The notes under the pieces were generated by a model. The model had not been told where the DNA came from. It ran no database searches and saw only the letters and a list, made by a program, of their open reading frames with translations. A program made the translations under genes and the position numbers. DNA of 64,000 nucleotides, from contig CAJINV010000006.1 in assembly GCA_905178155.1 (NCBI GenBank), positions 2,520,658 through 2,584,657 of the forward strand, in the 5' to 3' direction. Positions 1-64,000 of this stretch are shown here, piece after piece. This DNA is from Amoebophrya sp. A120 (taxonomy: Eukaryota; Protista; Dinoflagellata). Every line of letters begins with the position of its first letter. Within the stretch, counting starts at the first letter, position 1.

Positions 1-969
1 TTGCACCATGTAGCCCCGTAAACTTCTCTGCACCAACCTTTCAAATTCTACCGGGTTCTCCCGAAATATTCTGCTCGCCTCCTGGTTCAGCGGGTCGTTC
101 CCGTTTGGCTCGGCGAAAAGGTGCAGGATACCTTGTTTTTACGAGTTGATATTATCTTGACGTCGTGCGATTGCGAATCGAAATTTGCATGAATGGGTAA
201 AATGGTTATGGTATTCGTAATCGTATTCCCTGCTGGATAAACAAATGCTTCCTACTCTGCAACTAGTAAGCAGTATTCGCATCACAAATTACAGTAAAGT
301 ATAGTACCGTATATCACCGCCGATATTGACAAAACGGGTTTCCATTCCTCCCGCAAAATATTCAGGCACACGTTGCCCTCCAGATCTATATTTGGGTGGA
401 AGATCTTCGTGTCACACTTCACTTTTGGCGCTTCGTGGGGGTACCTGAGGTTTCGGATAGTGCAGATGTTAGAAATTTCAATTTGTCATGCGTAGAAAAC
501 TGGACTAGATAGGGCCCTTGTCCTACTATTGCTTGATGTACAAATGGCCAGCAGAGCAGCGAAGTCGAACTAACAAACTGAAGGTGAAGCTGGGTCTCTA
601 CTCGAAATAAATAAACACTTCTTCACATCAACATTTCTCAAAACAAAGGTATAGATACAGTGGAGGTATTGTGAACAAAAACCGGAAACAAGCTTGCTTC
701 CACATGCCCTCCTCTGGTTTTACATCGAGCGCAAAGTGCATGATGTTGTTCTTGTTCAAGAAGTTCAGCTGACACTGCGGCGGCACATCCAGCTCATCCA
801 GCTCCTTCTGCATCCTTATTTCCCCGGGTTGTTTGTCCCCAAAAGACTGGGAAGCAGATCCTGCTGCAGGGTTGCTTGTGGCCGATTGCTCATTCCCGGA
901 CTCCTGATTATTGGACTGCTGGTCTTGCTTCTTTTTGGCCCCGCGGCCCACGCCGAAGACCTTGATCAT
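1..969 (-). CDS. UBC12: NEDD8-conjugating enzyme Ubc12/UBE2M-like (3' end runs off window)
   Basis: Exons 969-659, 444-308, 131-<1 joined by canonical GT-AG introns (445-658, 132-307) give MIKVF...[13 protein letters not shown]...[64 protein letters not shown], the E2 core with the Ubc12-type [21 protein letters not shown] signature. Confidence 0.92.
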
Positions 970-1974
970 TTTCTGATGTAGTTGTTCCGGACGACGAGCA
1001 ACTACTTCTAGCAGGTTTATTGCTTCTACACTGGTCGTTCTCGGGTGAAAAAGTCCAGTTTATTCCTCCGTCTATTTGTTCCGACGGCTGGTGTCCGTGT
1101 TCAATAGAGCGGGCGGATTGAAGTTTCTAAACTGGTATGTGTATGTGCGCCGTCGTGGTCAGAACCAATCCTCTCGTGTAGAAGTTCCAGCTTCAAGTAG
1201 TAGGAGGTGGATAGATCAGCATCCTTGCAATGTCCCTCGCGGCGACATGGTTTGGAGGACCATCCTTGAATTTCTTTTCAACTGCTGAAAAATCGATTTG
1301 ATGCAACACGCGTGTGGTCGGTGTGAGCGTCAGAATTAGAATACTTATTATGCAGCTTGTAGTGCTGCAACGACAAAACGTAGAACTTAAATGCTCCGCA
1401 AAATCTATTTTCTCACTGTATGAAGATCATGCGAACACTACGAATCAGTAAAGTATATTTCAAAACAGGTACTATAGTCTTTGTACCGTCGGAAATAATT
1501 ACAGTCTTGTAGAGTCTTTTTCTCTCTGGAAAGGGATTTTCGACGTTTGCTTTCAACTAAAGACCCCACCTTGCCCCGCCTACAGATTTCGTCAGAAAGA
1601 GCAAGGGCGGAGTGGTACTACCTGATCGCTTTGCAGAGCTTCTCCTTGCGGCTTTGCTTTTCGAGAACACTGGAGGAGGAGGGTCGTGGCGTTTGCATTC
1701 CACAATTGAAATACTTAAGTAAAACAAGCTTCTGCTACATACAATTCAGCAACAAGTTTTGCGACGACCTTCGGTAAATTTCACTTGTTCTCTTCGTTCA
1801 GTGCAGCAAGATCCCCTGTGTACAACTTAGAGTCTTCGCGATGAAGATGATTTTTGCATTCGACAGGTCTTCTGGTTCAGTATGTGCTGTTGTTGAGAGG
1901 TGGAGCACAGAAGTTCAGCACCTGAGAAGATCCATGTCCATCCTCAAAACAACACCCAAAATAAAAAATCACTA

Positions 1975-4851
1975 TCACCTCGTGTTCCGTGTCGCCCACG
2001 TGACTTCCACGTGCTTTTCCCAGAATTCCGCCCCGTTCAACGCCTCAATGCCCGCCCACGCGGCGTCCTCCGTTTCGAAGAAAAGAAACCCGATGCCCTT
2101 GCTGTAGCCGTCGCTGTCTTTGCACAGTTTGATCCTGCGGACGGAATTGGTGTCTTGGGGTTCCGGATGACATATACCAGCTTCCACAGTTCCCGCTGGA
2201 GGTTCAAACCGCATTTCGTTTTCCTTGAGCCAATTCTGCACATCGGACTCCTTTGCTTCTAACGGCAGGAATTTCAGGAACAACTGCTGGTAGTAAACCT
2301 TCTTCTTCGACCCATTTGGAAGCAACGGATCCGCGTTACTGTAGTCCGGCTTCGCTTTTTCCCTGCAGAAAGCGATTCGGATCAGCCGGTTTTTCAGCAT
2401 CACCGGCTCGTTTGCCAGATTATTTGCGTATTTTTGGATTTTTTCCGCGATACTCCTATCTTCTTCCTGAAACTGCGCGATCGCCTTGCCGAGAAACTTC
2501 GACCGCTCTTTCTCGACCAAAAGCTCAATTTTGCAATGGAGATTTTGATTTTCTTCCATAATTTTTGGTTCGATCGCTGCTAGAAGCGTTCTCACATCCT
2601 TCTCCGTGCAGTCAAAAGGAAGGCCGGAGAGAAACAACTTCGTTTTGTCCTCGACTTCAGTTCCTGCGCTTGATCCGTTGTCATAAGCGCCATGGGTAGA
2701 GGAAGTTGCGTCGGCATTACTACTAGTACCCCACGAGCTACTAGTGCCCTGTTTCCCCTTCCCCTTCGCCGTTTTTTCCTTCATCAAATCTTCCCTGTCT
2801 TTGGACAAACACACCCGCAAACTCCTCGTGTTCCACTTCGCATTGTCGAAGAGCTCTACTGCTTGACTCGCGTACTCTTTTTTGCTGTAGGTGACAAACC
2901 CCATCCCCGCTTTCTTGTACAGCTTCACGCGTTCGATGATGTTCTCTGTAGAAGTTGTATCAGCATCTGCACTTGACGTGCTGTCGGCTTGCTTTGCAAC
3001 AAGGCCATGTTGAAAAAACTCCGACACATCTTCCTCCGTCGCTTCGTACGGGAGAAACCGCACAAACAACTCGCGTATGGAATGCAAAAATGTCTGGGTC
3101 TAGAAAGTTGCAACTTGTCATGCAGATTTTACATGGCCCGTGACGTCTGTGATGTATTTTCTAGCATCACAGATTTTCTGAGAGCTTCTTGATGCCTATT
3201 CCGCATGACAAATGCCATCCCTGCGCGGAACAAACTGGACTCCTCTGCTTGCTGGTCATGCAATACAGATTTTTTTAGAGTCCAAGGTTAGCATCACAAG
3301 TTCCAACTTTCCAGAACCAGACATATTTACAATCCATATCGCGCTCGCCCTTGTCAGACAACACAGCGCCTTTCCCGTCCTTGCCTTTCCCTTTCATCGC
3401 GTTTTTCCCACCTTGCTTCCCAGCCAACTGTTCTTTCGCCATTTTCGGGTCCGTGGCGTGCCAGGTGACCTCGTTGGTCTCCGTGTTGATATATCCTGTG
3501 CAAAAGTCTCATACTCGTACAAATGCAAGTCTTGCATTACAAATCTTGTTTCCAAGGGAAGTCTGCGTTACAAATTCTATTTCTCATGCTGAGGAAATTT
3601 GTAATGCATTTATACGAGTACGATACTTTTGCACAGGATATGATAAAAGAACAGTTGATAAACCTGCTCCCGATGGACTTGTTCTCTACCAAGTCGCTGA
3701 TATTCTTCTGGATAATTTTGATCACATCAGCAGCAGCGCCTGCTTTCTCATTCGGAAGGAAGTTGTAAACCCAAGCTTCCCCCTTTATCAAGTGCAAAAA
3801 TGTCTGGGTCTGGAAGATTCCGAGACTTGTCATGCAAATTTTATTTTTTTTTTGAGTTTTGCATGAGCCATCATGATGTCTGTGATGCATGCCCTAGCAT
3901 CACAGAGATGATGCCTATTCCGCATGACAAATAATACCCTCTTCCCGTAGCAAAACTTACACTCCCCTTGCTGCTCATGCAATACAGATTTTTTTGGAAT
4001 CCATATGTAGCATCACAAGTTGCGTTCTTCCAGACCCAGACATATTTGCGCTCGATACCCTTACACGGCTGACAATCGGTTTCCGCTAGCTCCCACTTCC
4101 GGATCGTGCCCACCCACACGTCTTGTTCTTTCGGCATAGAAGTCTTGAGCAGATGAGCTTGTGTATCTTCATCTCCATCTTTAATATTGCCAACCTTGTC
4201 GTAGTAGTTTTCTTGCAGAAACTCCAGCACGTCTTTCGCTTCCGCGGTAAATGGGATTCCGAAGAGGCGAAGCGCGATCTTCCCCGCCGTGCTGTTCTTG
4301 TCCTCGCCAGTTGTCATGTTAGGGGACGCATCGTCCGTCGAGCAACTCGCCGCAGGAGAGGCGTTGGTCGTTGTGTAGCCCGCGTTCGTGTGGTTTATTG
4401 AGGATGACTTGTCAAGCTTTCGTTTCTTCGGCTGTGGCTCTGCTAAGCTTCCTGTTTGGTCAACTTCTTGTTCCTCCGCTTTCTGGTCTTGAAGTGGTAC
4501 ACCATCACCATCCTCCTCTAACAAAGAGACCTCGATAAATCTGTCTTGCATGTGCTTCTTGTGGAGAGCCTCGACCAACGATTGTTTATCTGTAGTTGTT
4601 TTCATCCTCCCTTCTTCCGCATTAACAGAAACTTTCACCCAGGCTTCGCCTCGTTTCGGCTGGTTTTTCTTCGGCTTTTTCGCGCCGATCTGGACGGTTT
4701 GGATAGTAATCGTGGTCACATTTGATGTCGTACTTTTGCTGTTTTCCACCACAAACGCCCTGCAATCCTCCTCCGTCGCCTTGAAGGGAAGGCCGAACAG
4801 ACGGAGCGTGAAGGACGAGGTGATATTTTCATCTCCGCAAGCGTTCGTCAT
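1975..4851 (-). CDS. Multi-RRM RNA-binding protein, 4 exons
   Basis: Repeated RNP2/RNP1-like motifs (LRLFGLPF, LFVRFLPY, GMGFVTY, LFLSGLPF, LFLKFLP, SKGIGFLFF). Frame is continuous after removing elements 3786-4057, 3492-3640, 3076-3338 plus one 5-nt DR each (CKG|EAWV, SFI|NTE, GER|ELFV). Confidence 0.88.
3076..3338. mobile_element. Introner-like element, TIR family A
   Basis: TATGGAATGCAAAAATGTCTGGGTCT...CCAGACATATTTACAATCCATA; DR tcgcg both sides. Confidence 0.9.
3492..3640. mobile_element. Introner-like element, family C (~150 bp)
   Basis: TATCCTGTGCAAAAGT...ACTTTTGCACAGGATA; DR tgata. Confidence 0.9.
3786..4057. mobile_element. Introner-like element, family A
   Basis: Family A TIRs; DR ccctt. 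Confidence 0.9.
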
Positions 4852-5697
4852 TTTGTTTTTGGCGAGGTTCGTCTACAATTTCGTGGAGAGAGTAAAAAAC
4901 GTGGTGCAACTACTTATTGCAAAGGGTGCGAAGATGTATCACTATCGCTGAGAGTCTCGCTCTATCGATGCCTCGATTCACAGTGGCAATCACAATGACA
5001 ATGGCAACTTCCTCTATAAATTTTTCATTCCTGGTCTGAAGGGATGGTCTGATGTTGCTCTAATGAGGTTGGGAATGCGGTCGAGGACAATGACAAAGCT
5101 ATATAGAAGATCATCTTCTTTCCATTCACAGCTAGTATGTATGAAGATCTTCTTCTGTCGGATCTGCAGTCGTGTGAACCACCAAGATCTGATTTTTTGC
5201 GATGGTAGGAAACGAGCCAGAACATTCAAGATCGAGTTAGTACACGAGGAGTTCATCCTGCTTCAATTTTAGAAGTACGGATCCGTTTTTCATCGCAGCT
5301 TTCGAAGCATTTATCAAAACGTGAACAAGGTGAAGGTCTTGTGAGGATGAAGGGATCCTTTTTTGCTGGTGTCTTTTTCCGTACGTTTCTACAACTGAGG
5401 GAACGAGCATCGTGATCTCGGTTTTGATCATGGGTACTGAATCTTGAAAGACGCTTCTCTTCACCACAGATCGTCCCCGGGAAGAACAACCACAAATTCA
5501 AAATGTTGTTCCCGGTAATCGATTACGACAGCCGAAGCTGCTTTTCCAATGTGTTTGTTATTGTTTCTTTCTTGAAAAATCTCCAAAACAAAATCCAACT
5601 AGAATCTTTCAAGGTCGGACTCGGTTCCGGAGGTGGGGGTGGTGGATCTCGAAAATAAATGCATGAAACTGGTGCACTACTACAGCTGCGATCTTCA

Positions 5698-6967
5698 TCA
5701 CAAGTAATCCTGTGACCGCTCATCTACCGAGCTCTCTTCTGCTTCGACCTCGACTCCCGCGCTTGTTCCCTGTGTTGCTGCTTCACCACTCGTCTCCGAG
5801 GTCCTCGTGACTGATTTTCCTTCTGTGGTGGTAGTCTTCGCTTTACTATTTCTCACCGTATCGCCCTGGTCCGCCTGCAGCTCGCGTCTGTGGCCCACGT
5901 GCCCGACAATGCTGTCGTCGACGTCTTCGGTGAATTCGCCTTCCATCTTGTGACATCCTGTGCAAAAGTATCGCAGACTCGTAGTAATTGCAATCATGCA
6001 TCACAAATCTCCATCCCAGGGTAAACCAGCATTACAAATTCCATTTGTCAAGGCTAAGATAATTTGTATATGCAATTACTCCGTGGTACGATGCTTTTGC
6101 AATTTTTCATATGTGAAAATCGCAGCGCTTGTCCGTAATGCGCCAAACCCAGTGGAAACAAAAACTGTCTGCGGCGCTGTAGTTTTTGTTCGAGAATGGA
6201 CATGCGTACTAGTATAGCCATTTGAGAACTCAATTCACTGGTGGCAGTACCACCAGACAGTAGAAACAAATCTGAGCAGGAAGAAGAAGATGCCACAAAA
6301 ACAATTCCGTTTTATTCCTGAAAAAACAAGAACATATCAAAATCTAATATCCTTTACCACGCCTGCCTGCACGTCTCGATGTCTGGTATGTTCGGGATCT
6401 CCGTTTTGTAGTCTCCGTACAGCCAAGCGCCCCGTTGAAACGGAACTACTCCGGTGGCGTTGGTCCCGTTAATCCACTATCAGACGAAAATATGTCTGGT
6501 GATCTGGATGATAATTGCAGGAGTTTGTCATGCAGATTTTGGATAATGCACCGCGCTCGCGCAGTCCCCTGGAATGCAGGGCACAGCGTCACAGGTTTTG
6601 TAGTACTATAGTGTTATCTTCCCGCACGAGAGATAAATAATGTTTCAGCATGGTGCCCGAAACTGGCAGGCAAGGCGTGCACCTACCCGCGCAAGATGAA
6701 AAGTAGTTTCCGTGGGATCTACAGGACGGCGCATCTTCACAAGTTGCAAAAATGTTCCAGACCCAGATCGATATTTCCACCGCGTATCCACTCCTCCGTC
6801 GCCAGTTTCAAGCCCGAAAACTCCCGGAGGTCCTGTGGAACCGGGGCCAAACCGTCGGCCACAGACGCGGACACGAGAGTCGTGGGGACGAGGCCACAAG
6901 TTGCGGCAAAGGAAAAAAGAGCTGCCGTGGTGAGCAAGCCGCCGGTTGGGTGTTTCCCCGTCCTCAT
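5698..6967 (-). CDS. Secreted PAN/apple-like domain protein (paralog 1)
   Basis: Hydrophobic N-terminus (LLTTAALFSFAATCGLV). Spliced core RGAWLYGD...ETCRQACAADSFCFHWVWRITDKRCDFHK...DVDDSIVGH (CxxxC...CxxW...C apple spacing). Two elements plus canonical intron 6177-6357. Confidence 0.75.
5954..6111. mobile_element. Introner-like element, family C (left end CAT instead of TAT)
   Basis: Family C TIRs; DR tgtga. Confidence 0.85.
6478..6786. mobile_element. Degenerate introner-like element, family A
   Basis: Eroded TGTCTGG / CCAGACCCAGA ends; DR tccac; removal gives EEW|INGT. Confidence 0.8.
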
Positions 6968-9814
6968 CCTTGTTGCGCCGGCTCCTGTGGGAGATAAATC
7001 AGTGCAGGCCTTTGGTGCAGCGCGATGAGTTCTTTTCGGTTGAGTTGAAGACGAGGACGGGTGGCGGGAGGTGGTGAGCAGGGAGTCCTCTTCGGTCGTG
7101 TGAAAGTCGGCCTTCAATTGCAACGTCGGAGATGACACCATGTCTTTGAAGAGAGTAGTTGGAAGTCGTATCCTAATAAATGATCTCAATCTACTCACAA
7201 CTTTACATGAATGGTGTGCATCAAAATGTCCACAGAAGACGAGGTCGACCGGAGGCTTGGTGCTCTTGAAAGGATATAGAAAATACACAGATAGAACAAT
7301 GCAGCAGGTTGATGCAAGAGCTCCTGTAGTTTATCTGATGCTCTACTTTGTATCTACTGGGACACAACAACCCGGGGATCTGGATCTGTGGAAAAAAATG
7401 AAACAGCAACATAGTCTGTGCAGCAAATTGACCAAGATAGAACAAGATCGCGCTGGCACAATGAAGAAATGTCGGGCTCCACCAAAAGAAACTGCTCGAA
7501 GATGCGACCGCCTCTGCTGAACACCTAAAGACCCTAGCGCCAAGGCTAGGTAGCTCAACCAGCTGTAAGTAGCACGAGAAGCGTGGCCCGCCGCCGACCG
7601 CTCTGTTGGCATAGATAGTAGTGTCACAGCGAGGCCTCCGCAGGAAGGAAGGTAGCTTAGTAATGGCACAGCTGGCCCGCTCGGCGGACGGTGCCGCAGT
7701 AATGCTGCAGCGCAGGCAGCTCCTGCCCGCGCGCCAACATACAAATCCCGCCGAAGCCAGCCACCAAATAGCCCCCAGGGGGGAGGGACAGGCGCGGCGC
7801 GGTCGGAAAGCGCCGCCGCACGGCTCTGCTGGGGCACTGCGAAGGGCGGGAAAGAGGTCCGCCGGCCGCGAAGGAAAAGCCGCCGGCCCGGCTGCCTTCG
7901 GCAAGGCCAGAAGCGCGGCGGCGCGAACATACGCTGGGCCGGCGCGCGCGGCAAAGGAAGAAAAAGCGAAACAGGCGCCGCCCGCCCCGCCACAGACGGG
8001 GCAGGCGGGGCGCATTCGGTAGGCCCCGCGCTGCCGGCAATCGGTCGCCGTTGGTGCGCGCGCCCTCCCGAAAAAATTCCGAGCGCCCTTAGCACAAGCA
8101 CGCCCGCTCCGCAAATTATACTGCAGCGATCATGCACGACCGGCCCGGACCCTCCGGCGAGGCGCGCGCGGCGCCCCCCGGGTCTGTTGCGGCGGCGTCC
8201 GTACTTCGACTGCCTGCTACCCCCCGCCGGGAGGCCTATCAACCGAGGAGCCGGCACGCGCCGCGCCGCCGAAAAGCGCCCGCCGCCATGGCACCGGGGC
8301 CGCCAATGATTGGAGCTGCCACACCACCGGCGGCGCGCGCCCATTGATTCTGCCGCCATTTTTTTTGCCTGTGGCGCACGATAAAAAAATCCTAGACGAA
8401 CTAGAAATCTCAAAAACATAGATTTGAGCTAAGATAGAATTGAAGGCCGGCTGCAAGAGTTCTCTCGTCTCCCCCACACTTCTTTTTTGTACGCACTTCG
8501 TCGTCGGTCTTGCGATACAGAGGTTATCGCTCCTAGACTCAAAATTACGGACACACCCTACACCACCAAATTCGCACGCTTTTGATAAGACAAACATGCT
8601 CGGCAGCCTCTCTGGAAGAGCAACACCTCTCTGGAGAAGCTTGATCGGGTTTCTGTTATCGAAATTGCGCCGGCTCATTTACTAGGTCACTACCGACAGG
8701 GGCCGACACGGCGACAACAAGTGAAGAGCCACAACTTTGGCTAGCTCCGGCCGGATGCTTGCCAATCATCAGTCGTGGCAATCTACGCCCAATCGCCAGC
8801 CACTCATTCTGCTAGCTTTGAATGGACGAGTGTCAATCGCGAACTACCGATACGCACGACAGCCGGCAAAGGGAAGGCAGGATACAATCGGCCGAGCATT
8901 CACTTGGGCCAGCCACTGGCAACGGGTCCTGTCGCCCCTGCCAGTTCCCTGCCACAATGGGCGACTGGCACAACGCAAAGCCAGCGCCACACAGAGGAGC
9001 GTCCTTTGCTACTTCCAGATACTTAAATACAAGCAAACCACCCGCCGCGGCAGCCTGAGAGTAAGCGCAAAGCCGGCCACGTTGGAGACATCAATGCCAG
9101 CTGCAGGCCAAGGTGTTCAGCACGCAGTGACAGGGGCACGGCGAAACGCCTGGCCGCGCACAATCGAACCCGGGCCAGGGCGCCCAGTCAACGCAGCGCG
9201 CGGGGGGCAGCCGCCACGCGGCCGAAAAGCGCCACCGGGCGCACATTGCCCGGAGCCGCAAAGGGCCGCCGGGGGCTCTCCCACGAATGAAAACCGGCCC
9301 CCGGCCTCCACTGGGCGCAGACAGGGGGCGGCAGCAGCTCAGCCAATAGAGTAAGGCGGTGGGCGAAGCTCTCAACTGCTGCTGCATGAAGGACGTGTAC
9401 GGCGCCGATCGCGACGGCGCCCGCCGCAACGTGTGCGCCAACATTGCAGCGGCCCACCCCTTGGCATCTTCAAAGCCCACTCGTCCGAGAGGCTGGCAGC
9501 CCGAGGCGGAAGAGCTCGCCGCCCGAGGTGGAAACATCCACACAACCCCCGCGCGCTGTGGAAGTCTTGCGGAGGAGTACTGGCTCGCGCCGGACACAAG
9601 TGGCGGGCCATGGCAGACGGGCCCATGTCCATTCTTAATGTTACACACCAACTCACTCTCACTCCCAATGGTGCTGGTGAAGGAGGAAATTCATTTTCAT
9701 TTACTCAATGAAAGGTAGAAGTGCGCTCAGGAACCATTCCTGCGTCACTTTATGCCTCATCGTTGAAATCAAATAATGGCGGTGCAAACGTGACCATCAT
9801 CTGTAGCCTGAGAG

Positions 9815-10228
9815 CCATCTGCGTCGCCCCCTCAAATCCCTCTGCCCACGCGCTCGTTTTCTCTCAACCGGCTACGAAAACCAATAGCACTCAGCGGAAA
9901 TAAAAAAACTATGACTACTTCTACCGAACAAAATGTAAAACCTCGTGAGAGAACCGAAGTCGGGAGTTGTGCGTTGTATGATTTTGTTTCAAAACACCAC
10001 CGAACACAGGCAGGGCACGATTTGCGAAACCACAACTCTATTGCCTGCTAACCTTTCGCCTATCCTAGTAGCTAGAGGGCGGCAGCCACCGTGAACATAA
10101 AAGAACTGACACTCGTCATATCAACCACTTCCACTGCGGAGCGACGATTTCCTGTGCCTTACCTTTAAAACGGTCAGTCGATACTGCGCAGAAGGTCGGG
10201 TATCAAAACAGGCACAGCGCAGCTAGGT
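9815..10228. repeat. Block-conserved ~400-bp segment, copy 1
   Basis: Shares blocks CTCGTGAnAGAACCGAAGTCGG, TTTCAAAACnnCACCGAACA, TGAACATAAAAGAACT, GTCAGTCGAnACTGCGCnGAAGGTCGGnTATCAAAACAGGCA with 11165-11588. Confidence 0.85.
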
Positions 10229-19368: not shown

Positions 19369-19419
19369 TTTGCTTGAAAGATTTCGCTTTGCTATTCAAA
19401 AGAAGGAACAGAGCGACTT

Positions 19420-21270: not shown

Positions 21271-21271
21271 T

Positions 21272-29684: not shown

Positions 29685-29971
29685 TATTTAGGTATTTTGT
29701 TTTTCTTTTTGGCGATCGCGATATTTTGTCCTTGCAAAAAAAACACTCACCGGTAATTAGCTTTCATGTTTACTTTTGTTCGCTTGAGTTGCTCTTCCCT
29801 TTTCTGGTGAAAAACTCCGCGTGAGAAACAGCTAAATACAGGTCGAAAAATAAACCTACCTTTTTGGCTCCTGAGTCACCTCAGAGTGGATTGAGAATAG
29901 TACTTACCGAGCGGAAACGAACCACGCAACAAGAGCCCCAGGTGACTGCAAATTATGCGAGTCTGATTTTC

Positions 29972-52600: not shown

Positions 52601-55600
52601 TCCTCCCACTTCGACTTCCGGCATGTAATTATTCGCTACGGCTGGAACAATTGCCACCGGCCCGTTCTCTTCTCTTTGTTCTCCTTCTCCTTCTGTGTGC
52701 GCATGAGCCTCCATGTTGCCGTGCGGGTGAATCATCTCCACCGGGACAGGGCCGGCAGCAATAATTGCTGGGTTCGCAGTTCTACTACTGTCATCCAGCC
52801 CTGCAACATGTAAACGATCCGACGAGCCGATGTGCACCAAGGGCGGGATAACTTCCGCCTCCGTGATGCGTCCGGCAGTCCCGCTCGTCACGGTTTTTCT
52901 GCTCCGCACCTCAATCAGCAACGTTTTCTTTGCCGCGGCGGGGCTCACCTTGGCCGCGAGGGTGTGCAGAAACACGAAATTTAACGCGATGGCCACCGCG
53001 TGGCAAAACTCTTCACAAAACACGAGGATAACGTCCATGGTTGCCGACCGCGAGTACCAGCGGGAGTATATCGCAAGAAAAAACTGTTTCACTGTAAACT
53101 TGTAATGCAGAAAATGCATCTCCTCACAAGCGTGTGTCTTGCTACACATGCAAGACAGTGGATTTTTAGCTGTGTTTTCCCCTAGGGACCTTGCATGGCA
53201 AATTTTCTCTGTCGTGTAGAACAAACTTGTGATGCAAAACCTGCAAAACCCTTACAGTGAAACAGTTTTTTCGTGGGATAGAGTAAAGCACAAGGGCAAA
53301 GATCTGGCTGCCGAAATCGCAGAAGGTGGCCACGAGAATCAGTTGCGTGGAGGAGAGTATCGAAAGAAAAATTGCTCCCTCCCCATATCAAAGTGGTAGT
53401 TTGTGTTGCGGGATTTGTGTACACAAATCAGCTCTGTCTTGCAGTATAGGAGTGCAGGCAGATAAAAAGCCTGGAAGGCGCTGGCTAGAGGTGAGCGCTC
53501 AGCATGGCAGACGTCTGCCCTGTTGGTGCAGCAGCACTACAAATCGCCTGCGGAAAGCGGCGAAAGCTCCGGCTTTGCTCTCTTGCAAGACAGACCTGAT
53601 TTGTGACCACAAATCAGCATCACAAATTTTCAAAAGGATGCCTTTTCGATATGGGGAGGGGGGATTTTTCCTTTTAATAGAGAGGTTCTGTTCCCCCGGG
53701 GCACCTTTCGCGTAGTTTTTGTGCAACTTTTTTGGTGATGTTGAGGGTGCTTTTTTTCCTTCTTCAGCATGTTGGTCCTCGTCTTCATGCGCATCGTGAA
53801 GATCATTTTCCTCGTCTGAACCGTGCTCCTGATCTTCCTCATCTTCTTTCCCGCCCTCATCGTAGTGCTCTCCCGTTAGGCTGGACGTTAAGTACGGAAT
53901 GGCCTTCCGCGCCCGGCTGGCCAGGAGCATCATCACCAACAGCTGCGCCAAATTCGTATCATATGCAAAAATGTCTGGGTCTGGGTGGAGATTCTGAGAC
54001 TTGTCATGCACGTTCTGCATGAGCCATGACGTCTGTGATGCATGCCGTAGCATCACAGATTTTTCGAGGGGTTCTTGATGCCTATTTCGCATGATAAATG
54101 CCTTATCCGCGTAGCGAAAATTACATCCCCTTTGCTACTCATGCAATACAAATTTTTTTGGAATCCAAAGGCAGCATCACAAGTTCCACCCTTCCAGGCC
54201 CAGACATATTTGCAATGCATAATTCGAAAGCACCGGCAATTCTGCGGCGACAAACGGCAGCGAGAAGTGCGGCCCGTCGACGTACTCCCGCGCGTAATTT
54301 GTTCGGTATCCTGAGTAAAAACGTCCCCACACCAGAGTCTCAAGATGGGGCCCTCGCAACACAAATCCAGAAGCTTTGGCAGTCACGCATGACAAGTTCT
54401 TGCAGCACGTAGTGTAGTGCAGGTTGGAAAGGACATCCGCATTACAAATCCATGTGCTTATGCTGTGTACAGCATTACAAATCCCAAAACACGATTGCAA
54501 ATGCCTATCATGGGGATGCGCATCACAAATCTTCCTGTCATTGCAAATCTGCATGACAACTCCGGGGTGAGGACGTCGTTTTTATTCAGGATATTCGGAA
54601 GTAGAAAATCACCCCGGTAAAGGTGAAGTGGAAGCAGCCTTTTATCATCAGATACAGCAATGCGCGGCTGATGATCGGCAGCAGCATGCACCCGATCGCT
54701 AAGCCGCATACCGTCGTCAACCCGGCGGACAGAAGAACAAACTGCGCGTTGGCTGCCGCTGGAATCCGCTGCTTTGTCGTGTTGTCGAGCCCGGGGAGGG
54801 CTGCGACGCGGGAAATCCGCCCGGATTCGTGGTCAAAATCGGCGGAAAAACTCGCGGAAAGGAGATCAACATCTTGGTCGTGCTCAGCAGCTGCGGGGTC
54901 AACACTTCTTGATGCGGTATTCGCCGCGCTCAGCATCTCAGAACTAGCACTACCACTACTACTGCTACTGCTTGCCAGAGAACTCGAGAAGACCCAGTAC
55001 GGCAAGGTCATCAGCAATAAGCCGGTGATCGCCAAAACCCACACGAGGAGGTGTAGATCCCAGGCTTTCTCTATGAGAGTGCACAACTCCCCCTCCTCTT
55101 TAAATGTATGGCATGAACAGCAATGCAGACACCAGCTCAAATGGTGCCTCCGCATGACAAGTTGATGCGCCTAACCTAGTACTGTTTGGGCTACTTCCGA
55201 GTAGATTTGTCATGCAAACCGTGCCACAGCGCAGCGATAGGATTTCGGATACGGATTTTGCATATACAAATCAGGGCAGAGGGGAGTTGTGCACTCTGAT
55301 ATTCTCGTTATCAAATGTAAAAATGTCTGGGTCTGGAAGAGTCATGCTGTTTTTGCATGACACAGAAGGTCTGGCATGGAAGCTCTAGCATCACAGGTTT
55401 CGAGAACCTTCCGCAATGCCGAATCCGCATGACAAGTCCCCGACTTTGCTGGCAAAAAGTGGGAGCTTTTGCTACGTATGCATGAGAGACTCGTCTGTGT
55501 TCTGAAATACGCATTACAAGTTGCATTCTTCCAGACCCAGACATTTTTACATTTGATACTCGTCGTGCACTTGCAAATCCACGTGGTTTCCCACCATTTC

Positions 55601-58600
55601 TTATCAAATGCAAAAATCCCTGGATGTCTGGAAACTTGTGATGCTGGGTGGCGTATCATGAGGAGGCCACAAGTGCTGGCTCAGCATGAGAAGTTTCTGA
55701 GCTTCTAGGTGTTGCCTATTCTGCATGACAGACTGCGTTTCTGCATGACAGAAAAGTGGCGCTCTTGGGTAACGTGCATGACAGATTTAAGAGTCATGCC
55801 AGACAAGCATGACAAACTTGCATTCTTCCAGACCCAGACATTTCTACATGTGATATTTCTTTTTCCCTCTGCGCCTCGGCCCGCCTCTTCTTGTCCCGCT
55901 GGAAGTGCCGGAGTTTTTTCTGGATTTGGTCAAAGTTGGGCTCTTCCTCCTCCTCCTCCTCTTCGATCTCTTCCTCATCGGTTGTGAAGTGGCCGTCTTG
56001 ATGTTCTTCTACCTCTGCAGCCCCTGTAGTTTGCTGCTCTGTCATTGCTCCAACAAGGACTTGCTCCTCCGGAGCTACTTGGACACCCACAAGACCTTGG
56101 CCCGTGTTTACAACTACTCGCAACCCCGAGTCGGCGTTAGTTTGCCCCTCGACACCGGCTGGCTCTTGTGCGAAGTTTTTACTTTTGACGAGAGCGGAAG
56201 TACTAGATGTTGCAACAGCATTCTGCTTCATCGCTTCAACACCGTGTTCAACAGCATGTGCTTCATGATCAGCATGTGCATCCCCTGCTTCCACCTCGTC
56301 TTCGTCGTCCTGCAAGATCTTATCCACCGCCTCCTTATCCGCGAGATCCTGGTTTCCGATCGGCTGATGAGGATGCTCATTTTTCTCTGACCCTGCTTCA
56401 TCAGACGTCCCAGACTGCTCCTCCGGCATGGGGATGTGGGCAGCACCAGGAGAAGTTGCAGATGCTGTCGTTGCACTTGCACCACCAGTACTAGCAGGAT
56501 GTTGCAACACTTGATTTTCACTGCTATCTGGCGCATCTACTGCTTCTCCTTCGGCATGGGCCGCGTGCTCTTTATGATGGTGATGGTGGTGGCCGCCCTT
56601 TTCCTTTTTCTTCTTCTTCTTCTCCTCTTTCCCCGAATTAGACGACTCGGAAGTGGAATACGCACCTTGCTGCTGCTGCTGATTTGCCCCCGCCGCCCCT
56701 TGGTCCTTGTTTTCCGCTTCCTTGTTCATTTGGATGACCTGTCCAATGCAAAAACGCCCCCACCCCGGAGTTGTAATGCAAATCTGCATGCATACAAAGT
56801 TTCTCATGCGGAAACCCAACATGAGAAGCATTTTCTAGTGGCTTTTTGAGATTTTTTGTTATGCTCGAACCAGCATGATGCGCTAGATCTGTGACGCGGT
56901 TGCAGCACTAGCTGAGTACGATTATATTGCTCGGCCAAACTTGTCATGCGCAACAGCCAAAAGCCGGCTGATTTGTGTAGCAGACTTCCCATCTTGAATA
57001 TGGGGTGGAAACGTTTTTACTCAGGATATCACCTGTTCCAGCGTCATGCCCTTCGGTAAGTCCCCCGCGCGTATCGAATGTAAAAATGTCTGGGTCTGGA
57101 AGAATGCAACTTGTCATGCTAGATCTGAAGCATGCAAAAATCTGTGTTGCATGATTACCAAAAGTCGTCCAGTTTTGACCAAGTCGGGAGGGAGTTTCTC
57201 ATGCAGGATAGGCATGAGAGAGATCGCGCAGAATCTGTCATGCTAGGTCCTGCATTCCAGGCTTCATGGGTCATGGAAAAGCTGCATGACAAATCGCGCA
57301 TTCTTGCAGACCCAGACATTTTTACACTTGATAGCGCGGGGCTTCGCCGCGGTGCCGAAGGACTTCAGTTTGAATTCGCTCACGTCCACCTTTTCCAACG
57401 CCTGAAACCCGCCGGGATTCTTCTCCCCCTCCTGCAGCCAGTTGGTGGCGAAAACAAACACCGCGACGAAAAAAAGCGCGCCGGAGCCGAGTAGTAACAC
57501 CGCGAAAGGGTTGTTCACGTGGTGCTTTAGGAAATATAGCTGATTCAATTCCAGTCGCCGTTGGGATTCTAGAGTAGTCGGATTTGATAGTGTTTGCTCT
57601 GATGTTCGACTTTCGTCTTGTCCGCTAGTGGATGAAGAACCTCCTGCAAAGGATGTGAAGAACGCCCCACTCAACAGCAGGCCGCAGCCGATTAGAACCG
57701 ACCCCACGATGGCCCCGAGCAATGCGCACGCCTGGCCGTAGTTCGCGATCAGCATCGCGTTATGCATTGCAAATTTGTTTGGGTCTGGAAGAACGCGAGG
57801 CTTGCCATGCTCGTTACCTACTATGGCTCTCAGAGTCTGTCAACATGCACGTTAGGTACCCAAGAACTTCAAGTGCTCCGCTTATTCTCGGTCATGCAGA
57901 GGCGCAACTTGCCATGCAGAATATGAATACGCAAGACCTAGCATAACGAGTTTGTCATGCTTGGCCGTCAGTTGAGATGTCCTCATGATTGTCCAACCCG
58001 CATCACAAGTTTGATGTTCCAGACCCAGCCATATTTGCATTGCATACGCGTTGCTGCTGTTCCGGCGACGGACTAACTGCACCATGCGTCCTTCGAGCAA
58101 AACCTTGGCGAGAAAGATCCCCAGCTATCAAATGTAAAAATGTCTGGGTCTGGAAGATTCTGAGACTTGTCGTGCATGTTTTGCCTGGGCTATGATGTCT
58201 GTGATGCATGCCCTAGCATCACAGATTTTTTGAGGGCCTCGCGATGCCTATTCCGCATGACAAATGCCCTCTCCGCGTAGCAAAAATTACACTCCCTTTG
58301 CTGCTCATGCAATACAGATTTTTTTGGAATCCAAATTCAGCATCACAAATTGCATTCTTACAGACCCAGACAATTTTACATTTGATACCAGGGTGGTGAA
58401 GGCGATGGTGAGGGAAAAGTGGCGGGCCAGGGAATTGGTTGCGGAAACAGCCAGGCTACTACTTGCGAAATTGGTGTCAGAAGCAGAATTTATCATCGCT
58501 TTTTCCAGTCCATCTTTGGTTTCACTCTCTACAACTGCGTCGTGGAGGTGGGCGTGGAGTCTCCGGCGCTTCTTGGTTTTTATTCTACTTCTTTGCTCCA

Positions 58601-61600
58601 CTAGTTGTACTTCTAAGGTACTAGAAGTTCCTCGTCCGGTTGTACTACTTCCTACTTCTCCACCCTCGTGCTTGTCCCCACCTCGCAGTTTGCTCTTCTC
58701 GTGCTCAACGTTATTCTTTCCTGATGCAGCTGTATGCCGTAGTCGTCCCTGAGATGAATTTCGCTTACCTTCGTCCCGTCGGAGATTCGGTCTCTTATTT
58801 GTTCCCGCAAACACGACCTCCTCCTCCGCATGGTCTTGTGGTCTTCTACCATTTGCCGCTATTTCATCGTGATAATTTCCAAAATCATTAAGGATCTCCT
58901 CGCGATCAAGGAGAAAAGAACTGCTTGTACCACCGCTTGATTCTCCGATATTGTCCTCCGCGTTTTTACTTTGGGTCGTTTCTGTTTCATCTTCATTTCC
59001 CTCAACCTGATCCTGTTCCGCCCTTGGTTCTTCACTTGGAAGTGTTGCAGTTGTTGTGCTGTTGTTCAGCTTGCTATTGCTTTGAACCGGAGGGCTCTGT
59101 TGAACAACTTGGAATGTTGCGCCACCACCACCGCCGCTGCTTTGCTCCGGCGCAGCATACGCGTGCGAAGATACATCAAGCTGGCTTTGGCTTTGCCCCA
59201 ACTGTCGCTGGTGCGCATTCTTGAGCAAGGTGAACGTCTCTTCCAGCCTTTCCTCAAACATCTGGGTTTCCAAATTATCAGCGAAGACCGGGAGAATTTT
59301 ATCCGCCTTCATTAGTTTATCAAATGCAAATATGTCTGGGTCTGAAAACTTGTAATGCTAAAAGTGGATGATAGACGTGCCGCAATACGCAGCTATGCAT
59401 CACAAATTTTGTGGCTGCCGTACCTTATGTATTCCGCATGGCAAACTGCCTCTATGCATGACAGTTAAGATGGCTCTTTCGTACCTATGCAACACAGATT
59501 TTCTAGTCATGCCAGCCAAGCATGACAAACTTGCATTCTTCCAGACCCAAACATTTTTGCATTTGATACAGTTTCTCCTGGAGCAAAAAGTATTCCGCGT
59601 CGGACACTCCCGCAGCGACCAGAATGGCTTGCGGGATGAACAGGGATTTGTTTTTCAATGCCCGGGAAGTTGCGGTTTGGCGATGCAACATTTGCTCCAG
59701 TGTCAGCCCCTGATCCTCCTCGTCCTCTCCGGGCGCGAGCGAAAGCCCCAAGCCGTAATTCGCGTGCACACCGGTCGTGTCTGAACTACGAGCTGCATCC
59801 ATTCCTCCCTCGTATCCACTTAGAATGTCGTCGTATTCGTATCATTTGTAAAAACGTCCCCACACCAGAGTCAAGATGGGAAAGCTGCTAGACAAATCAG
59901 CCAGCTTTGATCGTTTGGCATGACAAATTTGTCCTCGTAGTGTAGTCCTGTTTGAGGTAGTTCAGCAGCATCAGAGATCTAGTATACACATACTGATTAT
60001 AGCATCACAAATTCCAAAACACGGCTAGAAAATGCCTCTCATGGCGCTCCGCATGAGAAACTTTTTTGGAATGCAGATTTGCATGACAACTCTGGGGAGG
60101 TAGGGACGTTTTTACTCAGAATAATTCGCTCTTGTTCGTGAAGAACAACGCGACCGGGAATACGACGCCAAAGAGAAGCAACGAGAAGCAAATACAATTC
60201 GTGACCTTCCGGGGCTTGTCCTATCAAGTGCAAAAATGTCTGGGTCTGGAAGAGTGCCAGGTTTGTCATGCTTGTCTGGCATGACGCAGAAGAGTTTGCG
60301 ATGCGTGTCCAAGAAGAGAGCCTTTTGCGTGTCATGCAAAAACGCAGTTTGTCATGTGGAGAGCGCAATACTAAGCCGCGCAGATTTCTCTCATGCTTGG
60401 CTGTGCATTACAGAGCATTCACTATTCCCAACCGAGCATTACAAGCTTCCGGAACCAGACATTTTTGCAATTCATATGTCAACCGCGGAAGCAAACTTCT
60501 CTTTTCCAGGAGCGGACTTGGGTCCGCTCACGGTGTGCAGGGATGATGACACCGGGCTGGTGCTTATCCTGAGCAAAAACGTCCCCACACCAGAGTCAAG
60601 GTGGGAAATCTGCTAGACAAATTAACTAGCTCTGGTTGTTCCCCATGACAAGTTTGCCATCATAGCGTAATCCTGTTTCGCTAGTTCCGCAGCATCACAG
60701 AACTAGCATATCATGCTGATTCTAGCATCACAACTTCCAAAACACGACCAGAAAATGCTTGTCATGGAGCTCCGCATGAGAAACTTTTTTGACATGCAGA
60801 TTTGCATGACAACTCTGGGGTGGGGACGTTGTTACTCAGAATACTGCTCACGTCCACCGCGTCGCCCACCATCTTGCCGCCCGAGTGTTGCTCGCGTTTC
60901 CCGCAGCAAAAGAAGCAACTATTGACGATCGAGTCGCACAGTTTCAAGTGCTGGCACAGCCGGTCCAGCCACATGGCACGCTCGACAAACAAGGCGAACA
61001 ACGGGGCGAGGAGGAAGGTGTTCTGGCAAAACGCCTGCAAATTTGACACTTCCGGGCCGGGAATCTGCAGGTACCGCATGGACCAAATGAAGGAGGTAGA
61101 AACCGCAATGGTCGCGAGTCCGAAGAGAAAAAAATTCGCGATGCCGTAGAGCAAACCGAGCTTCCAGCCGGTGATGCGGAATACTTCACGCACGGACGAC
61201 TTGACAGACCGACACGGCCGGCAACACCCCCGCGTGCACTTTTCCAGCCCCGTTTTTGGCCGTTTGCCTGCCGTGGAAAAGCTGGACAGGAAAGTTTTCG
61301 GCAATCCCTATTGAGAGGAAAAACATCCCCAGCGTTGTCATGCTATTTTGCATGCCAAAAAAGTTTCTCACGCGGAGCCCTATGAGAAGCATTCTCTGTT
61401 CCTGTTTCGGAATTTGTGATGCTCGGATCAGCATGATGTGCTAGATCTGTGGTGCTTCTGAACTAGCTAAATCGAGGACAACACTACAAGGATCGAAACT
61501 TGTCATGCCAAACAACCAAAGGTGTGTGACTTGTCTAGCTGATTTCCCATCTTGACTCTGGTGTGGGGACGTTTTTAATCAGGATAAACCCGCCCTTGCA

Positions 61601-61884
61601 CTTCCCCCGTCGTCGCTGGCGGAGGCCAGTGCAGTTTTCGCATCGGCGGAAGCGGAGCTGCTTGGCTTCGTCAGGTCCGAAGTAGACGGGGGGAATTTTT
61701 TGAGCTTGGCATGAGGATCCACCTCGCTCGTATTCTGATTGTTTTCCGCACCAGCGTCTCTGTTTCCTCTGGAAGCCCTCCTACTGGTGCGCAGGACGAT
61801 TGCGGTGGGCATGGCGGCATCTTCAGAATCCGTGTCATGATTCTCCAACAAATGCGCGGGAAGCCCGCGCGCGCCCTTACCCAT
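49639..61884 (-). CDS. BT1-family (folate/biopterin) MFS-like transporter with long low-complexity insertions, ~23 exons
   Basis: Multiple TM helices and BT1-like segments (EVSNLQAFCQNTFLLAPLFALFVE; LLEGRMVQLVRR; FVFLHTLAAKVSP; LVYAIVLSCFLLG...LCELFGVT; NFIPLLFL). Most junctions checked stay in frame across 22 elements. Family call is from motif resemblance only. Confidence 0.68.
49690..49941. mobile_element. Introner-like element, family A
   Basis: Perfect ~30-bp TIR; DR ccggc. Confidence 0.92.
49988..50307. mobile_element. Introner-like element, family F variant
   Basis: TATTACAGTGAAAAATGCCCCCCACCCC...GGGGTGGGGGTATTTTTCCTTTTGATA; DR cgggg. Confidence 0.88.
50528..50671. mobile_element. 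Introner-like element, family C
   Basis: Family C TIRs; DR tgttg. Confidence 0.9.
51124..51389. mobile_element. Introner-like element, family A
   Basis: Family A TIRs; DR agttg. Confidence 0.9.
51426..51709. mobile_element. Introner-like element, family B
   Basis: Family B TIRs; DR cgtaa. Confidence 0.9.
51885..52101. mobile_element. Introner-like element, family E
   Basis: Family E TIRs; DR atttg. Confidence 0.9.
53069..53280. mobile_element. Introner-like element, family D
   Basis: Family D TIRs; DR gagta. Confidence 0.9.
53358..53679. mobile_element. Introner-like element, family F (inverted relative to 33283-33604)
   Basis: Family F TIRs; DR gagag. Confidence 0.9.
53957..54221. mobile_element. 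Introner-like element, family A
   Basis: Family A TIRs; DR attcg. Confidence 0.9.
54307..54593. mobile_element. Introner-like element, family B
   Basis: Family B TIRs; DR ttcgg. Confidence 0.9.
55072..55301. mobile_element. Introner-like element, family N
   Basis: TATGAGAGTGCACAACTCCCC...GGGGAGTTGTGCACTCTGATA; DR ttctc. Confidence 0.88.
55309..55558. mobile_element. Introner-like element, family A
   Basis: Perfect ~30-bp TIR; DR ctcgt. Confidence 0.92.
55602..55855. mobile_element. Introner-like element, family A
   Basis: Family A TIRs; DR tttct. Confidence 0.9.
56740..57028. mobile_element. Introner-like element, family B (left end TGT)
   Basis: Family B TIRs; DR tgacc/tcacc. Confidence 0.87.
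57072..57333. mobile_element. Introner-like element, family A
   Basis: Family A TIRs; DR gcgcg. Confidence 0.9.
57761..58046. mobile_element. Introner-like element, family A
   Basis: Family A TIRs; DR cgcgt. Confidence 0.88.
58126..58387. mobile_element. Introner-like element, family A
   Basis: Family A TIRs; DR ccagc/ccagg. Confidence 0.9.
59318..59568. mobile_element. Introner-like element, family A
   Basis: Family A TIRs; DR tagtt/cagtt. Confidence 0.9.
59840..60123. mobile_element. Introner-like element, family B
   Basis: Family B TIRs; DR attcg. Confidence 0.9.
60222..60476. mobile_element. Introner-like element, family A
   Basis: Family A TIRs; DR tgtcc/tgtca. Confidence 0.9.
60565..60843. 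mobile_element. Introner-like element, family B
   Basis: Family B TIRs; DR gtgct/ctgct. Confidence 0.9.
61309..61586. mobile_element. Introner-like element, family B
   Basis: Family B TIRs (left end eroded); DR atccc/aaccc. Confidence 0.85.
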
Positions 61885-63711
61885 AGTCCTTATATTATTT
61901 TTATTTGGGAAATTTCTTTATGGGCGATAAGATTAAGGATGAGTAGAAATGCAGTTTCTTTTACATGTAGTTGACGTGAAGAAGTGGTGTGTAGAAACTC
62001 GTTAGGGGGAATGCGGATGTGGTGACGCAAAAATACTTATGAATCGAAACTACAAAAGGAGCTGAGATAGGGACTTTGAGGGGAATGGAAGCGCATGGTG
62101 GTATGGCTCCTTCTCATTCTCTGGCTGTTTTTTTACTAAAAAAGTGTTAGTCTGGAACAGAGTGTACTATATGGTGGGGAAAACTTGAAGATGAACTTGG
62201 TGCTTGTATACAACACTTGAGTAAAAGACCTGATCTAGTACAACGATGAAGGCGGGAATTACAACTTCCACGAAACAAAGCCTGGTGGATGAAACACGAC
62301 ATACCATTTAGAGAATCAATCACGATTTGAGCGTGTAGTTGACAGTCAGAACTTACTAGAACCGGGATGAAAAGAACGTCGACCTGCTGGTGCAACTGCT
62401 TGAGCTCGGAATGCGACGCACGGAGTTCACAATCAAGAAGAAACAATAGAAGAACGAATCAGTGTAGAATTATGACCAGGAACGATCACGATGCGATTTT
62501 TTTGGAACGACACAAACTTGCACGAAGGGGAGTGGTGACGACAGCTGAAATACGAAATACTTTATTGTTCTGTTCTTGAACGAAAATGAAAGAAACGGGT
62601 CTGAATTCTTCTGTATCTGTCTGTAGTGTTTGACGACGAAATCGTTTCAAAGTAGCATCCACGAACAGCACTCTTGCTACGCTAGAGAAGTGGTCAACAT
62701 CTTCTACTGTGCTACTAGCTAGCACGTTGACCACGACATTACAGTGCTTTTAATATTCGCCCGGTTTTCATTTTCAACAAAATCGAACTTTGCGATGTAT
62801 CGGCACAGTACTTCTTCTACACAGAGGATAGATTTTATTTCCTCAAATTCTGTACCACACAAGAAAAATATTCCGTATCACAATATCTGGGGTCCTCGTT
62901 GTAAGCAAGCAACCAGCCGCCCCTCGGAAACTGTAGCTAGGGTTCTTATTTGTCAAAGCAACAGACTCTGCATGAGTATAATCTTCAAGGTACTACGTAC
63001 GTACGTGCCGGAATTCTTATCTAGCCTATCTCAAAGCGCAGCCTCGTAAGTAGTAGATCACGGACGAAAGTAACTTCAGCTTGGAGTCTAATTTATGCCC
63101 GGTGGTCTTGCTGCGCTTGATATGCGAAGGATTCAGCATCAAAAAATCTCGCTTGTCTCCAAAGGAAAGCATACACGACTGGTCCGGCGGTTTTTCCTCC
63201 CTTTTTGTTGCTCTGTAATCAGTGCAGCTCCTGCGATCAAAACTGTTGTATATCCTTCTTCTAAATAACGGGCTTTATCCGTATACTCCCCGCTGTCTTG
63301 ACCAGACCGCCCCTTCTTTCGTTAAAAGCCTACCAAAATTTGCTGTGTGACCGGCTACTATCATTCGCACAAGCCTTGTGTTTTCCCAAACAAAAGTGAA
63401 GATCCTAGGCAGGGGGTCAGTGCTCTCCTAGGTCTAGCGCACCAGAATTAGGTGGCATGCATCAATATTCTGACAAAAATCCGAATAGAAATTGCGAGTT
63501 TAATTGGTACAAGAAAAGTTGTGTTGTGGTTTGTGCCTATTTATTTTCCCTTCTCGTAGGGGTAGGGCACAAAAAATGACATACGTGAAAACGCAAGTTG
63601 TTGTGTGGTTGAGGTTGACATGACAAGCACAAGGATATAATTGTTGTTTTTAATGCAGGAAAAAAAAAAGTGAGTTTCTAACACACAGGTATCATCCTAG
63701 GTAATTTTCGT

Positions 63712-64000
63712 TCAGTGCTGAAACTCCGGCGGGATAAAGCCACCATCAATCGGCGGTACGCCCATCGGATTCATCATCCCAGTTATCGTACGAAAAAAGT
63801 GTTTCACAACTGCGAGGATAATTTTGCAGCTTTTGCATCACAAGTTTGTTCTACACGACAGAGAAAATTCGCCATGCGAGGTTCCTAAGGTAAAACTACA
63901 CTGCCAAAAATGAAAATCCTCCGTTGTCTTGTTACATGTGTAGCATGACAAAGAACACTTCTGCGATGCATTTTCTGCATCACAAGTTTACAGCGAAACA
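63712..64000 (-). CDS. Probable last exon (63712-~63783) of a gene that starts beyond the window
   Basis: Sequence after the final element reads TGMMNPMGVPPIDGGFIPPEFQH*; frame not verifiable. Confidence 0.3.
63784..64000. mobile_element. Introner-like element, family D, inverted, truncated by window end
   Basis: TATCGTACGAAAAAAGTGTTTCAC...; interior is the reverse complement of 53069-53280. Confidence 0.85.

Follow-up and report, generated by a model that had tools for sequence, protein, structure and literature searches.

An internal 9-bp word with preferred spacing is shared by introner families and some canonical introns of Amoebophrya sp. A120

The 64,000-nt stretch analysed here (the window) lies on contig CAJINV010000006.1 of the marine parasite Amoebophrya sp. 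A120, at positions 2,520,658 to 2,584,657. Its predicted genes, almost all on the minus strand, are interrupted by 72 introners of 144-378 bp, and these elements carry internal arrays of a 9-bp word, GCAT[GCT]ACAA. The motif adds a new and testable trait to an introner system already known: its copies follow a spacing grammar, stand at a bimodal distance from the element end and are conserved, they display neither RNA polarity nor covariation, and most canonical introns lack them. We infer that, in its behaviour, the internal word resembles a double-stranded DNA site, and that splice-site choice rests on the terminal nTA(T/C) and the paired ends rather than on this word. A preliminary description of the window had read the word as a host-recognised intron-definition code shared by introners and GT-AG introns. 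Its observation is confirmed, and its interpretation is partly supported.

The word occurs 171 times in the window (93 GCAT[GCT]ACAA and 78 TTGT[CGA]ATGC). In 100 dinucleotide shuffles, by comparison, it averages 2.42 copies and never exceeds 6, and an order-3 Markov model predicts 5.6. The elements hold 159 of the 9-mers in 18,376 bp (8.65/kb), and all 72 have at least one 8-mer. Six GT-AG introns with observed splicing hold another 7 in 965 bp (7.25/kb), five of the six being carriers (p = 3e-9 for the 9-mer against background). The GC-rich islands have none in 5,422 bp, and the rest of the window has 5 in 39,237 bp (0.13/kb). The array in element families, the scarcity outside introns and the enrichment over background in spliced canonical introns all stand as first proposed, and the sites quoted at the time were all recovered (279, 481-491, 12728 and 12761, 13238 and 13270, and the inverted pair at 3881-3904). 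The weight-matrix consensus of the word is AAYYTGTVWTGCW. It may resemble the Sox-Oct composite element and the RBFOX word, a likeness on which no argument here draws. Elements have a median of five sites, and 493 of 507 automatically found elements have at least two.

The elements are of an already-known type. Both of their strands begin with TAT-N7-AAA, and a 5-bp direct repeat flanks them. This target-site duplication (TSD) matches at no fewer than four of five positions in 63 of the 71 complete window elements, 56 of which came from an automatic search that required the match; the remaining 16 of the 72 were delimited by hand. Cutting out an element together with 5 nt restores long frames, such that 49642-61884 becomes one open reading frame (ORF) of 6,384 nt. 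When 5 is added to the element length, the sums fall evenly into the three phases (178/161/168 among the 507), so the elements must be spliced. Junction data cover window positions 1-19,500 and come from contigs of two runs whose classing as RNA is a guess. Of 29 joints, 15 are listed; they show five elements and six GT-AG introns skipped, and the other four join different copies and were ignored. The raw-read runs X9 and X10 matched element ends only and gave no junctions. A120 introners are described as non-canonical introns with inverted repeats of TAT, seven variable bases and AAA, with 3-5-nt direct repeats at the junction, a mean length of about 240 nt and co-oriented host genes (PMC7789003). 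The window elements agree in their inverted repeats, junction repeat, non-canonical splicing and repetition in families, and they are introners of the A120 type.

A pattern scan retrieved 140 loci, all from one related assembly (contigs JACKZZ01), amounting to 651 kb without overlaps. These loci contain 451 elements with terminal inverted repeats (TIRs), at 8.3 motifs/kb, and reversed and shuffled controls contain none. Clustering of window and related loci yielded 21 families of 4-73 copies each, which fall into 11 groups. Interiors align within groups (69-80% among group A members), while between groups only short motif-centred matches are found; the motif words are the sole 8-9-mers common to most groups, and GCATGACA is present in 10 of the 11. 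The inner TIRs are wholly different between groups and are themselves conserved (0.06-0.11). The preliminary description had called the families unrelated, which fits the interiors compared between groups but not their shared TAT-N7-AAA ends and 5-bp TSD, nor the reduction of 21 families to 11 groups. In the window and the first 80 related loci (L001-L080), predicted exons contain nearly all TIR elements (373 in 284 kb, versus 64 in 260 kb elsewhere), and no target sequence is preferred. This suggests that introners are targeted to coding chromatin, in a sample that is biased since each related locus was fetched by an element.

The copies of the word stand at preferred distances, and this spacing grammar is new here. 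Direct pairs prefer 31-33 bp, and inverted pairs prefer 15-17 or 46-50 bp (33-34 bp too, in one order). Inverted pairs had been emphasised before; they are present, but in the window the 32 direct pairs at 31-33 bp outnumber the inverted ones at 17 bp (7) and at 47-49 bp (16). Judged by 1000 permutations each, the 12 family representatives have 19 direct pairs at 30-34 bp (3.4 expected, maximum 9), the 18 orphan elements have 7 (1.9 expected, maximum 7), and canonical introns have 6 (1.0 expected, maximum 4). Inverted pairs at 15-17 or 46-50 bp number 23 in the representatives (6.3 expected, maximum 15) and 9 in the orphans (2.8 expected), but only 1 in canonical introns (0.6 expected). The distance from the element end to the first inward-facing site is 36-38 bp at 20 ends, 44-48 bp at another 20, and different at 4 (44 ends in total, non-independent). 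These two end distances differ by about one helical turn, and the pair distances correspond to about 1.5, 3, and 4.5 turns. Deletions are about half as frequent within direct pairs (41 in 14,475 columns versus 241 in 41,549).

The motif is better conserved than its surroundings. The scan pattern combined the motif with a neighbouring group-A TIR; for this reason the conservation and decay tests set aside group-A families or the first site in them, and divergence from consensus was measured in 350 non-A copies, whose families were not used for fetching. The core diverges by 0.084, the spacers by 0.198, and the central base by 0.263; in the most diverged quartile, the core has 0.110 and the spacers 0.301. 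Hence the motif decays more slowly than neighbouring bases; decay at an equal rate is what the preliminary description had named as contrary to its reading. Inward-facing sites are better kept, symmetrically about the element (0.062 and 0.071 versus 0.097 and 0.091). The TSDs are identical in 237 of 348 scored non-A copies although spacers diverge by 0.20, which implies that much of the divergence predates insertion.

Families insert both ways in genes (F3, 19 versus 19; F1, 20 versus 21), the two polarities of the word in pre-mRNA are present in 358 and 319 copies, and decay is alike in both (0.075 versus 0.083; 32 versus 39 sites). Three introns of one gene, starting at 12707, 13201, and 13678, hold pairs of differing polarity, and in canonical introns one polarity outnumbers the other by 22 to 11 (p = 0.08). 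Opposed sites do not covary, with 253 observed versus 253.7 expected in 750 cells and 213 versus 217.9 in 571 cells; the central base varies freely, again with no covariation. Motif-motif pairing is rejected on this ground, and the branched RNA fold suggested at first finds no support in polarity, decay or covariation. Rfam gave no match in the window.

The terminal TAT, serving as a positive control, is polar in the transcript. Its first base is changed 1 versus 10 times in 388 and its third base 13 versus 3 times (p about 0.01 each): the 5′ end keeps the first T and tolerates TAC, and the 3′ end does the reverse. A polar terminus beside a polarity-free internal word points to an RNA-level signal at the ends. 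One common cut fits all five spliced element junctions (5949-6111, 6472-6785, 12861-13133, 13411-13613, and 13888-14058), starting one base before the terminal TAT (nTAT or nTAC) and ending four bases past the other end. The nTA(T/C) start resembles the genome's own GTA donors and matches the predominant A120 splice sites, which are all NT-xx (PMC7789003, Table S4). Motif constraint is the same in copies that start with GT (0.069 versus 0.068), which leaves the motif unsupported as a compensation for non-GT starts; AG-ended copies exhibit a non-significant trend (0.085 versus 0.066, p = 0.11, n = 27). Among 346 copies with known gene strand, those whose intron begins with GT keep their inner TIRs slightly better (p = 0.01 in one test out of six).

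The GT-AG introns of the window, all on the minus strand, and the motif copy first noted in one of them are as follows. Introns within 1-19,500 are supported by junctions.
279-287, plus strand: motif copy (GCATCACAA on plus) inside the GT-AG intron 132-307
132-307, minus: TIR-less, one motif; junction
445-658, minus: TIR-less, one motif at 483-491; junction
6177-6357, minus: motif-free counter-example; junction
12707-12817, minus: short, direct pair at 12729 and 12762 (33 bp) and a variant near 12800; junction
13201-13322, minus: short, direct pair at 13238 and 13270 (32 bp), polarity opposite to that of 12707-12817 in the same gene; junction
13678-13838, minus: direct pair at 13767 and 13799 (32 bp); junction
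31547-31862, minus: predicted, one motif (31709); hidden Markov model (HMM) prediction only
33655-33993, minus: predicted, TIR remnants and one variant site; prediction only

Canonical introns outside 1-19,500 and in the related assembly are predictions of an HMM blind to the motif, which placed four of the six spliced GT-AG introns exactly and one boundary correctly in each of the other two. It predicted 132 GT-AG introns. After 26 were discarded because their GC exceeded 0.47 or because they were, or contained, a TIR element, 100 remained in the relative and 6 in the window. In the relative, 19 of the 100 carry the 8-mer, with 24 copies versus 2.9 expected, and 81 do not. The density is 0.05/kb in predicted exons and 0.3/kb in unassigned DNA. 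The window, where five of six spliced introns are carriers and 6177-6357 is motif-free, therefore overstates the frequency of the word in canonical introns, and the word is not a general intron-definition code. Carriers in the relative are for the most part short: the word is in 9 of 14 introns of up to 135 nt and in 10 of 86 longer ones (by locus, 7 of 9 versus 9 of 37, p = 0.005). The length cutoff was chosen post hoc, and by a rank test free of any cutoff p is 0.07.

The six spliced GT-AG introns align with introner families over the motif alone (11-20 nt), yet TIR-less introns among them retain intact pairs 32-33 bp apart, as introners do. Together with the conservation of the motif across groups that differ in their inner TIRs, this upholds the earlier view that the word is more than family ancestry and is probably recognised by the host. 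Among the 19 predicted carriers, 15 have no second copy in 715 kb, two have weak motif-centred matches, one gives a self-hit artefact, and one is a degenerate element. Signs of an introner origin of motif-bearing canonical introns do exist but are weak. More introners surround these introns (2.3 elements within 1.5 kb, versus 1.5; p = 0.04), and their two ends are slightly more complementary to each other (p = 0.01); as for TIR/TSD remnants, direct-repeat length does not differ (p = 0.35), and none of 104 introns has ATA-nn-AG ends. Two spans with GTAT starts and TIR remnants, 33655-33993 and 42686-42880, are possible intermediates between introner and canonical intron, the latter matching family F17 with an E value of 1e-9. 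The short GT-AG introns 12707-12817 and L034:1646-1754, which belong to different genes, are identical in their first 12 and last 10 bases and differ in interior and motif polarity.

The explanation that we hold with moderate confidence is a putative host architectural DNA-binding protein. One such protein would read the word on double-stranded DNA in either orientation, probably binding cooperatively to sites about three helical turns apart. Introner families would recruit it at a set phase from their ends, likely as a common cofactor for end pairing and mobilisation, and the host would keep sites in place in some TIR-less introns. The differing inner TIRs probably reflect different transposase specificities among families. 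As expected for sites of a host DNA-binding factor, the word is orientation-independent, spacing-constrained, conserved, and also found outside element families. Of the factors proposed in the preliminary description, one acting on chromatin fits these data, while a splicing factor on RNA and an RNA fold do not.

Several points weigh against this explanation. The protein is putative, and its binding is read from sequence. The spacing consists of preferred distances and has no clean 10.5-bp period: the best single period is about 16.2 bp, and peaks at 21, 42, and 53 bp are missing. A single helical-face model (10.5-bp period plus offset) is likewise not the best fit. Selection on the motif once an element is inserted is not proven. 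Where the TSD is mutated, divergence rises by 0.023 in the motif and by 0.035 in the spacer, a difference whose interval contains zero (-0.003 to 0.025); singletons are reduced to roughly half (ratio 0.45-0.59), but unsampled lineage history is mixed into this ratio. The folds of element interiors are more stable than those of shuffles (z of -0.5 to -5.2 in 8 copies). As the end type is the same in all families, one transposase superfamily could bind the word itself. Finally, copies and loci are non-independent, which makes the p-values optimistic, and the canonical introns of the relative are ab initio predictions.

It is possible, though considerably less probable, that the word is the subterminal binding repeat of a transposase mobilising all families, and that motif-bearing canonical introns are introner relics or unsampled TIR-less families. 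The TAT-N7-AAA ends and 5-bp TSD common to all families agree with this, and so do the recurrence of the word between the TIRs, in either orientation and at fixed distances from the ends, its better-kept inward-facing sites, and the divergence that mostly predates insertion. There are precedents in Emigrant/Lemi1 (PMC1636448) and the hAT element Hermes (PMC10368747), which have short words in both orientations inside the TIRs; these words are cooperatively bound on double-stranded DNA and required for transpososome assembly. Many A120 canonical introns are strain-specific (PMC7789003), and the introner-denser surroundings and end complementarity of motif-bearing introns point the same way. However, the Emigrant/Lemi1 and Hermes words are bound by the elements' own transposase, whereas the word here is universal although the conserved inner TIRs differ wholly between groups. 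It is not confined to elements with a cognate TIR, being found in 11 groups and in TIR-less GT-AG introns, and it fills the whole element with a fixed grammar; the TSD is 5 bp. Neutral relics should lose their sites, but TIR-less introns keep two intact ones 32-33 bp apart with nothing else aligning. No transposase was found among 93 ORFs of at least 330 aa, a small sample.

Host architectural proteins of the IHF, HU or HMGB type help end pairing from sites at a set phase from the transposon end. The sites here differ from these in being many per element and present in ordinary introns, and their protein is putative.

A DNA-bound host protein could instead mark intron DNA and aid a spliceosome without U1 small nuclear RNA (snRNA) co-transcriptionally, introners spreading by carrying an orientation-proof mark. 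This shifts the intron-definition idea of the preliminary description from RNA to DNA, and we regard it as unlikely. The word is in every window element and at least twice in nearly all of the 507, all of which must be spliced; it is carried by short GT-AG introns, and U1 snRNA was undetected in A25 and A120 (PMC7789003). On the other side are the 81 of 100 predicted GT-AG introns without the word, the constraint that is unrelaxed with GT starts, the non-significant AG-end trend, and the post hoc length cutoff. We put forward only tentatively the bolder proposal that this lineage defines difficult introns on DNA, in which spaced arrays of a host protein would guide the U1-less spliceosome co-transcriptionally, rescue short GT-AG introns, and let nTAT-ended transposons become clean introns either way. 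If true, such DNA-level intron definition would account for how introners could invade in tens of thousands.

It is improbable that the word acts at the RNA level, whether by binding a splicing factor or by forming the helices of a branched fold: interiors do fold better than shuffles, inverted pairs do pair in predicted structures, and the polarity in canonical introns does lean one way, but both polarities decay alike, opposed sites do not covary, and the commonest rule is direct copies at a 31-33 spacing, F3 and most canonical pairs being direct repeats incapable of motif-motif pairing. Least probable is a functionless word arising from shared ancestry, internal duplication or a mutational sink such as CpG decay; some families are related and the elements are CpG-poor (observed/expected 0.61 versus 0.99), but conservation is 2.4-fold, spacing is kept across unalignable groups, deletions are fewer inside pairs, and C>T change of 0.12 in CG versus 0.10 in CC and CT reveals no CpG hypermutability in elements, which rules out CpG decay as the origin of the word.

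Among known intron signals, a close one is that of Euglena nonconventional introns, which are also abundant, non-GT-AG and paired at their ends, with a short conserved word that keeps a fixed distance from the boundary (PMC12501133). In Euglena, this word comes as a complementary pair lying 3-6 nt from the boundaries; it has transcript polarity and is needed for splicing. The word described here differs in being internal, multi-copy, polarity-free and non-covarying, and the nearer analogue of the Euglena word is the terminal nTAT. The A120 introner paper treats terminal repeats only; the internal motif, its spacing rule and its sharing with canonical introns are described here. The string GCAT has no occurrence in the text and supplement text of PMC7789003, whose intron logos and RNAfold panel lie in figures. 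The internal word is undescribed in the available portions of that paper and of PMC12130899, PMC9860276, PMC12005148, PMC11282704, PMC10368747, PMC12501133, and PMC1636448, and a literature search by the exact word gave nothing on these organisms among the matches listed.

How introners move and how they are spliced with no detected U1 snRNA are stated open questions (PMC7789003). As a likely protein-binding site, the word would offer a first handle on how introners spread and are tolerated: at 9 bp, with strict spacing, and common to unrelated families and some ordinary introns, it can serve as bait for the protein involved. Two signals are now separable: an internal DNA array that lacks polarity, and a terminal nTA(T/C) that has it and resembles the genome's GTA donor.

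The introners of the window are listed below together with one motif pair, no strand being assigned. Rows naming a family by number alone come from family clustering; other sources are given in the row.
3076-3338: F0 (group A)
3492-3640: F1
3786-4057: F0 (group A)
3881-3904: inverted motif pair, 17 bp centre to centre, within element 3786-4057
5956-6111: degenerate end, spliced; hand-delimited
6478-6786: degenerate, spliced; hand-delimited
12865-13132: degenerate, spliced, cut fixed by mismatched TSD; hand-delimited
13416-13613: degenerate, spliced, cut fixed by mismatched TSD; hand-delimited
13893-14058: F20, spliced; family clustering and junction
14187-14486: F3, sites nearly all in one orientation
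14556-14817: F0 (group A), perfect 34-bp TIR
17427-17636: F11 (group B)
17718-17955: F12
18738-18951: F9 (group B)
22320-22569: group A-like ends; hand-delimited
22616-22894: F3
22931-23218: degenerate; hand-delimited
23323-23535: F9
24207-24357: F1
24618-24871: F6 (group A)
24919-25171: F14 (group A)
25231-25511: F3
25602-25872: degenerate; hand-delimited
26661-26968: F15
28404-28614: F9
28652-28860: F11
28893-29177: F3
29233-29382: F1
30995-31311: F10 (group C)
31960-32222: F8 (group A)
32298-32627: degenerate; hand-delimited
32693-33022: F15
33283-33604: F5 (group C)
34219-34596: degenerate; hand-delimited
34995-35250: F14
35313-35462: F1
35621-35833: F7 (group B)
39838-40158: F10
40218-40479: F2 (group A)
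40678-41023: outside assigned families; hand-delimited
42025-42276: F4 (group A)
42368-42637: F0
42686-42880: degenerate, F17-like; hand-delimited
42970-43202: degenerate; hand-delimited
44161-44440: F3
44833-45123: degenerate; hand-delimited
45897-46158: F0
47317-47570: F6
47660-47930: degenerate; hand-delimited
48486-48692: F17 (group B)
49690-49941: F4
49988-50307: F18
50528-50671: F1-like
51124-51389: F0
51426-51709: F3
51885-52101: F9
53069-53280: F11
53358-53679: F5
53957-54221: F0
54307-54593: F3
55072-55301: F13
55309-55558: F8
55602-55855: F4
56740-57028: F3-like ends, degenerate; hand-delimited
57072-57333: F2
57761-58046: group A
58126-58387: F0
59318-59568: F6
59840-60123: F3
60222-60476: F6
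60565-60843: F3
61309-61586: F3
63785-64000: cut by window end, 3 motif copies; hand-delimited

The motif-free GC-rich islands lie at 7500-10950 and 19430-21400. Two ORFs in them have no Pfam match, and the islands have no Rfam match. A stretch of about 300 bp recurs in diverged form near 9870-10220 and 11260-11600, and contig depth is high at 11353-11869. Viral contigs gave no match to the window, and BLAST found no locus orthologous to it. In the related loci, four long TIR/TSD spans were listed, among which L058:9990-10961 (972 bp) has a perfect 24-bp TIR, a 5-bp TSD, and about 700 bp of unrelated DNA inside; a C5 DNA methylase is encoded at L014:2422-5877. Host genes on the minus strand of the window lie within 1-1030, 1979-4872, and 12651-14905. 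They include one that, by its translation, we take to be a ubiquitin-like conjugating enzyme, an RRM protein, and a proline-rich protein with high contig depth.

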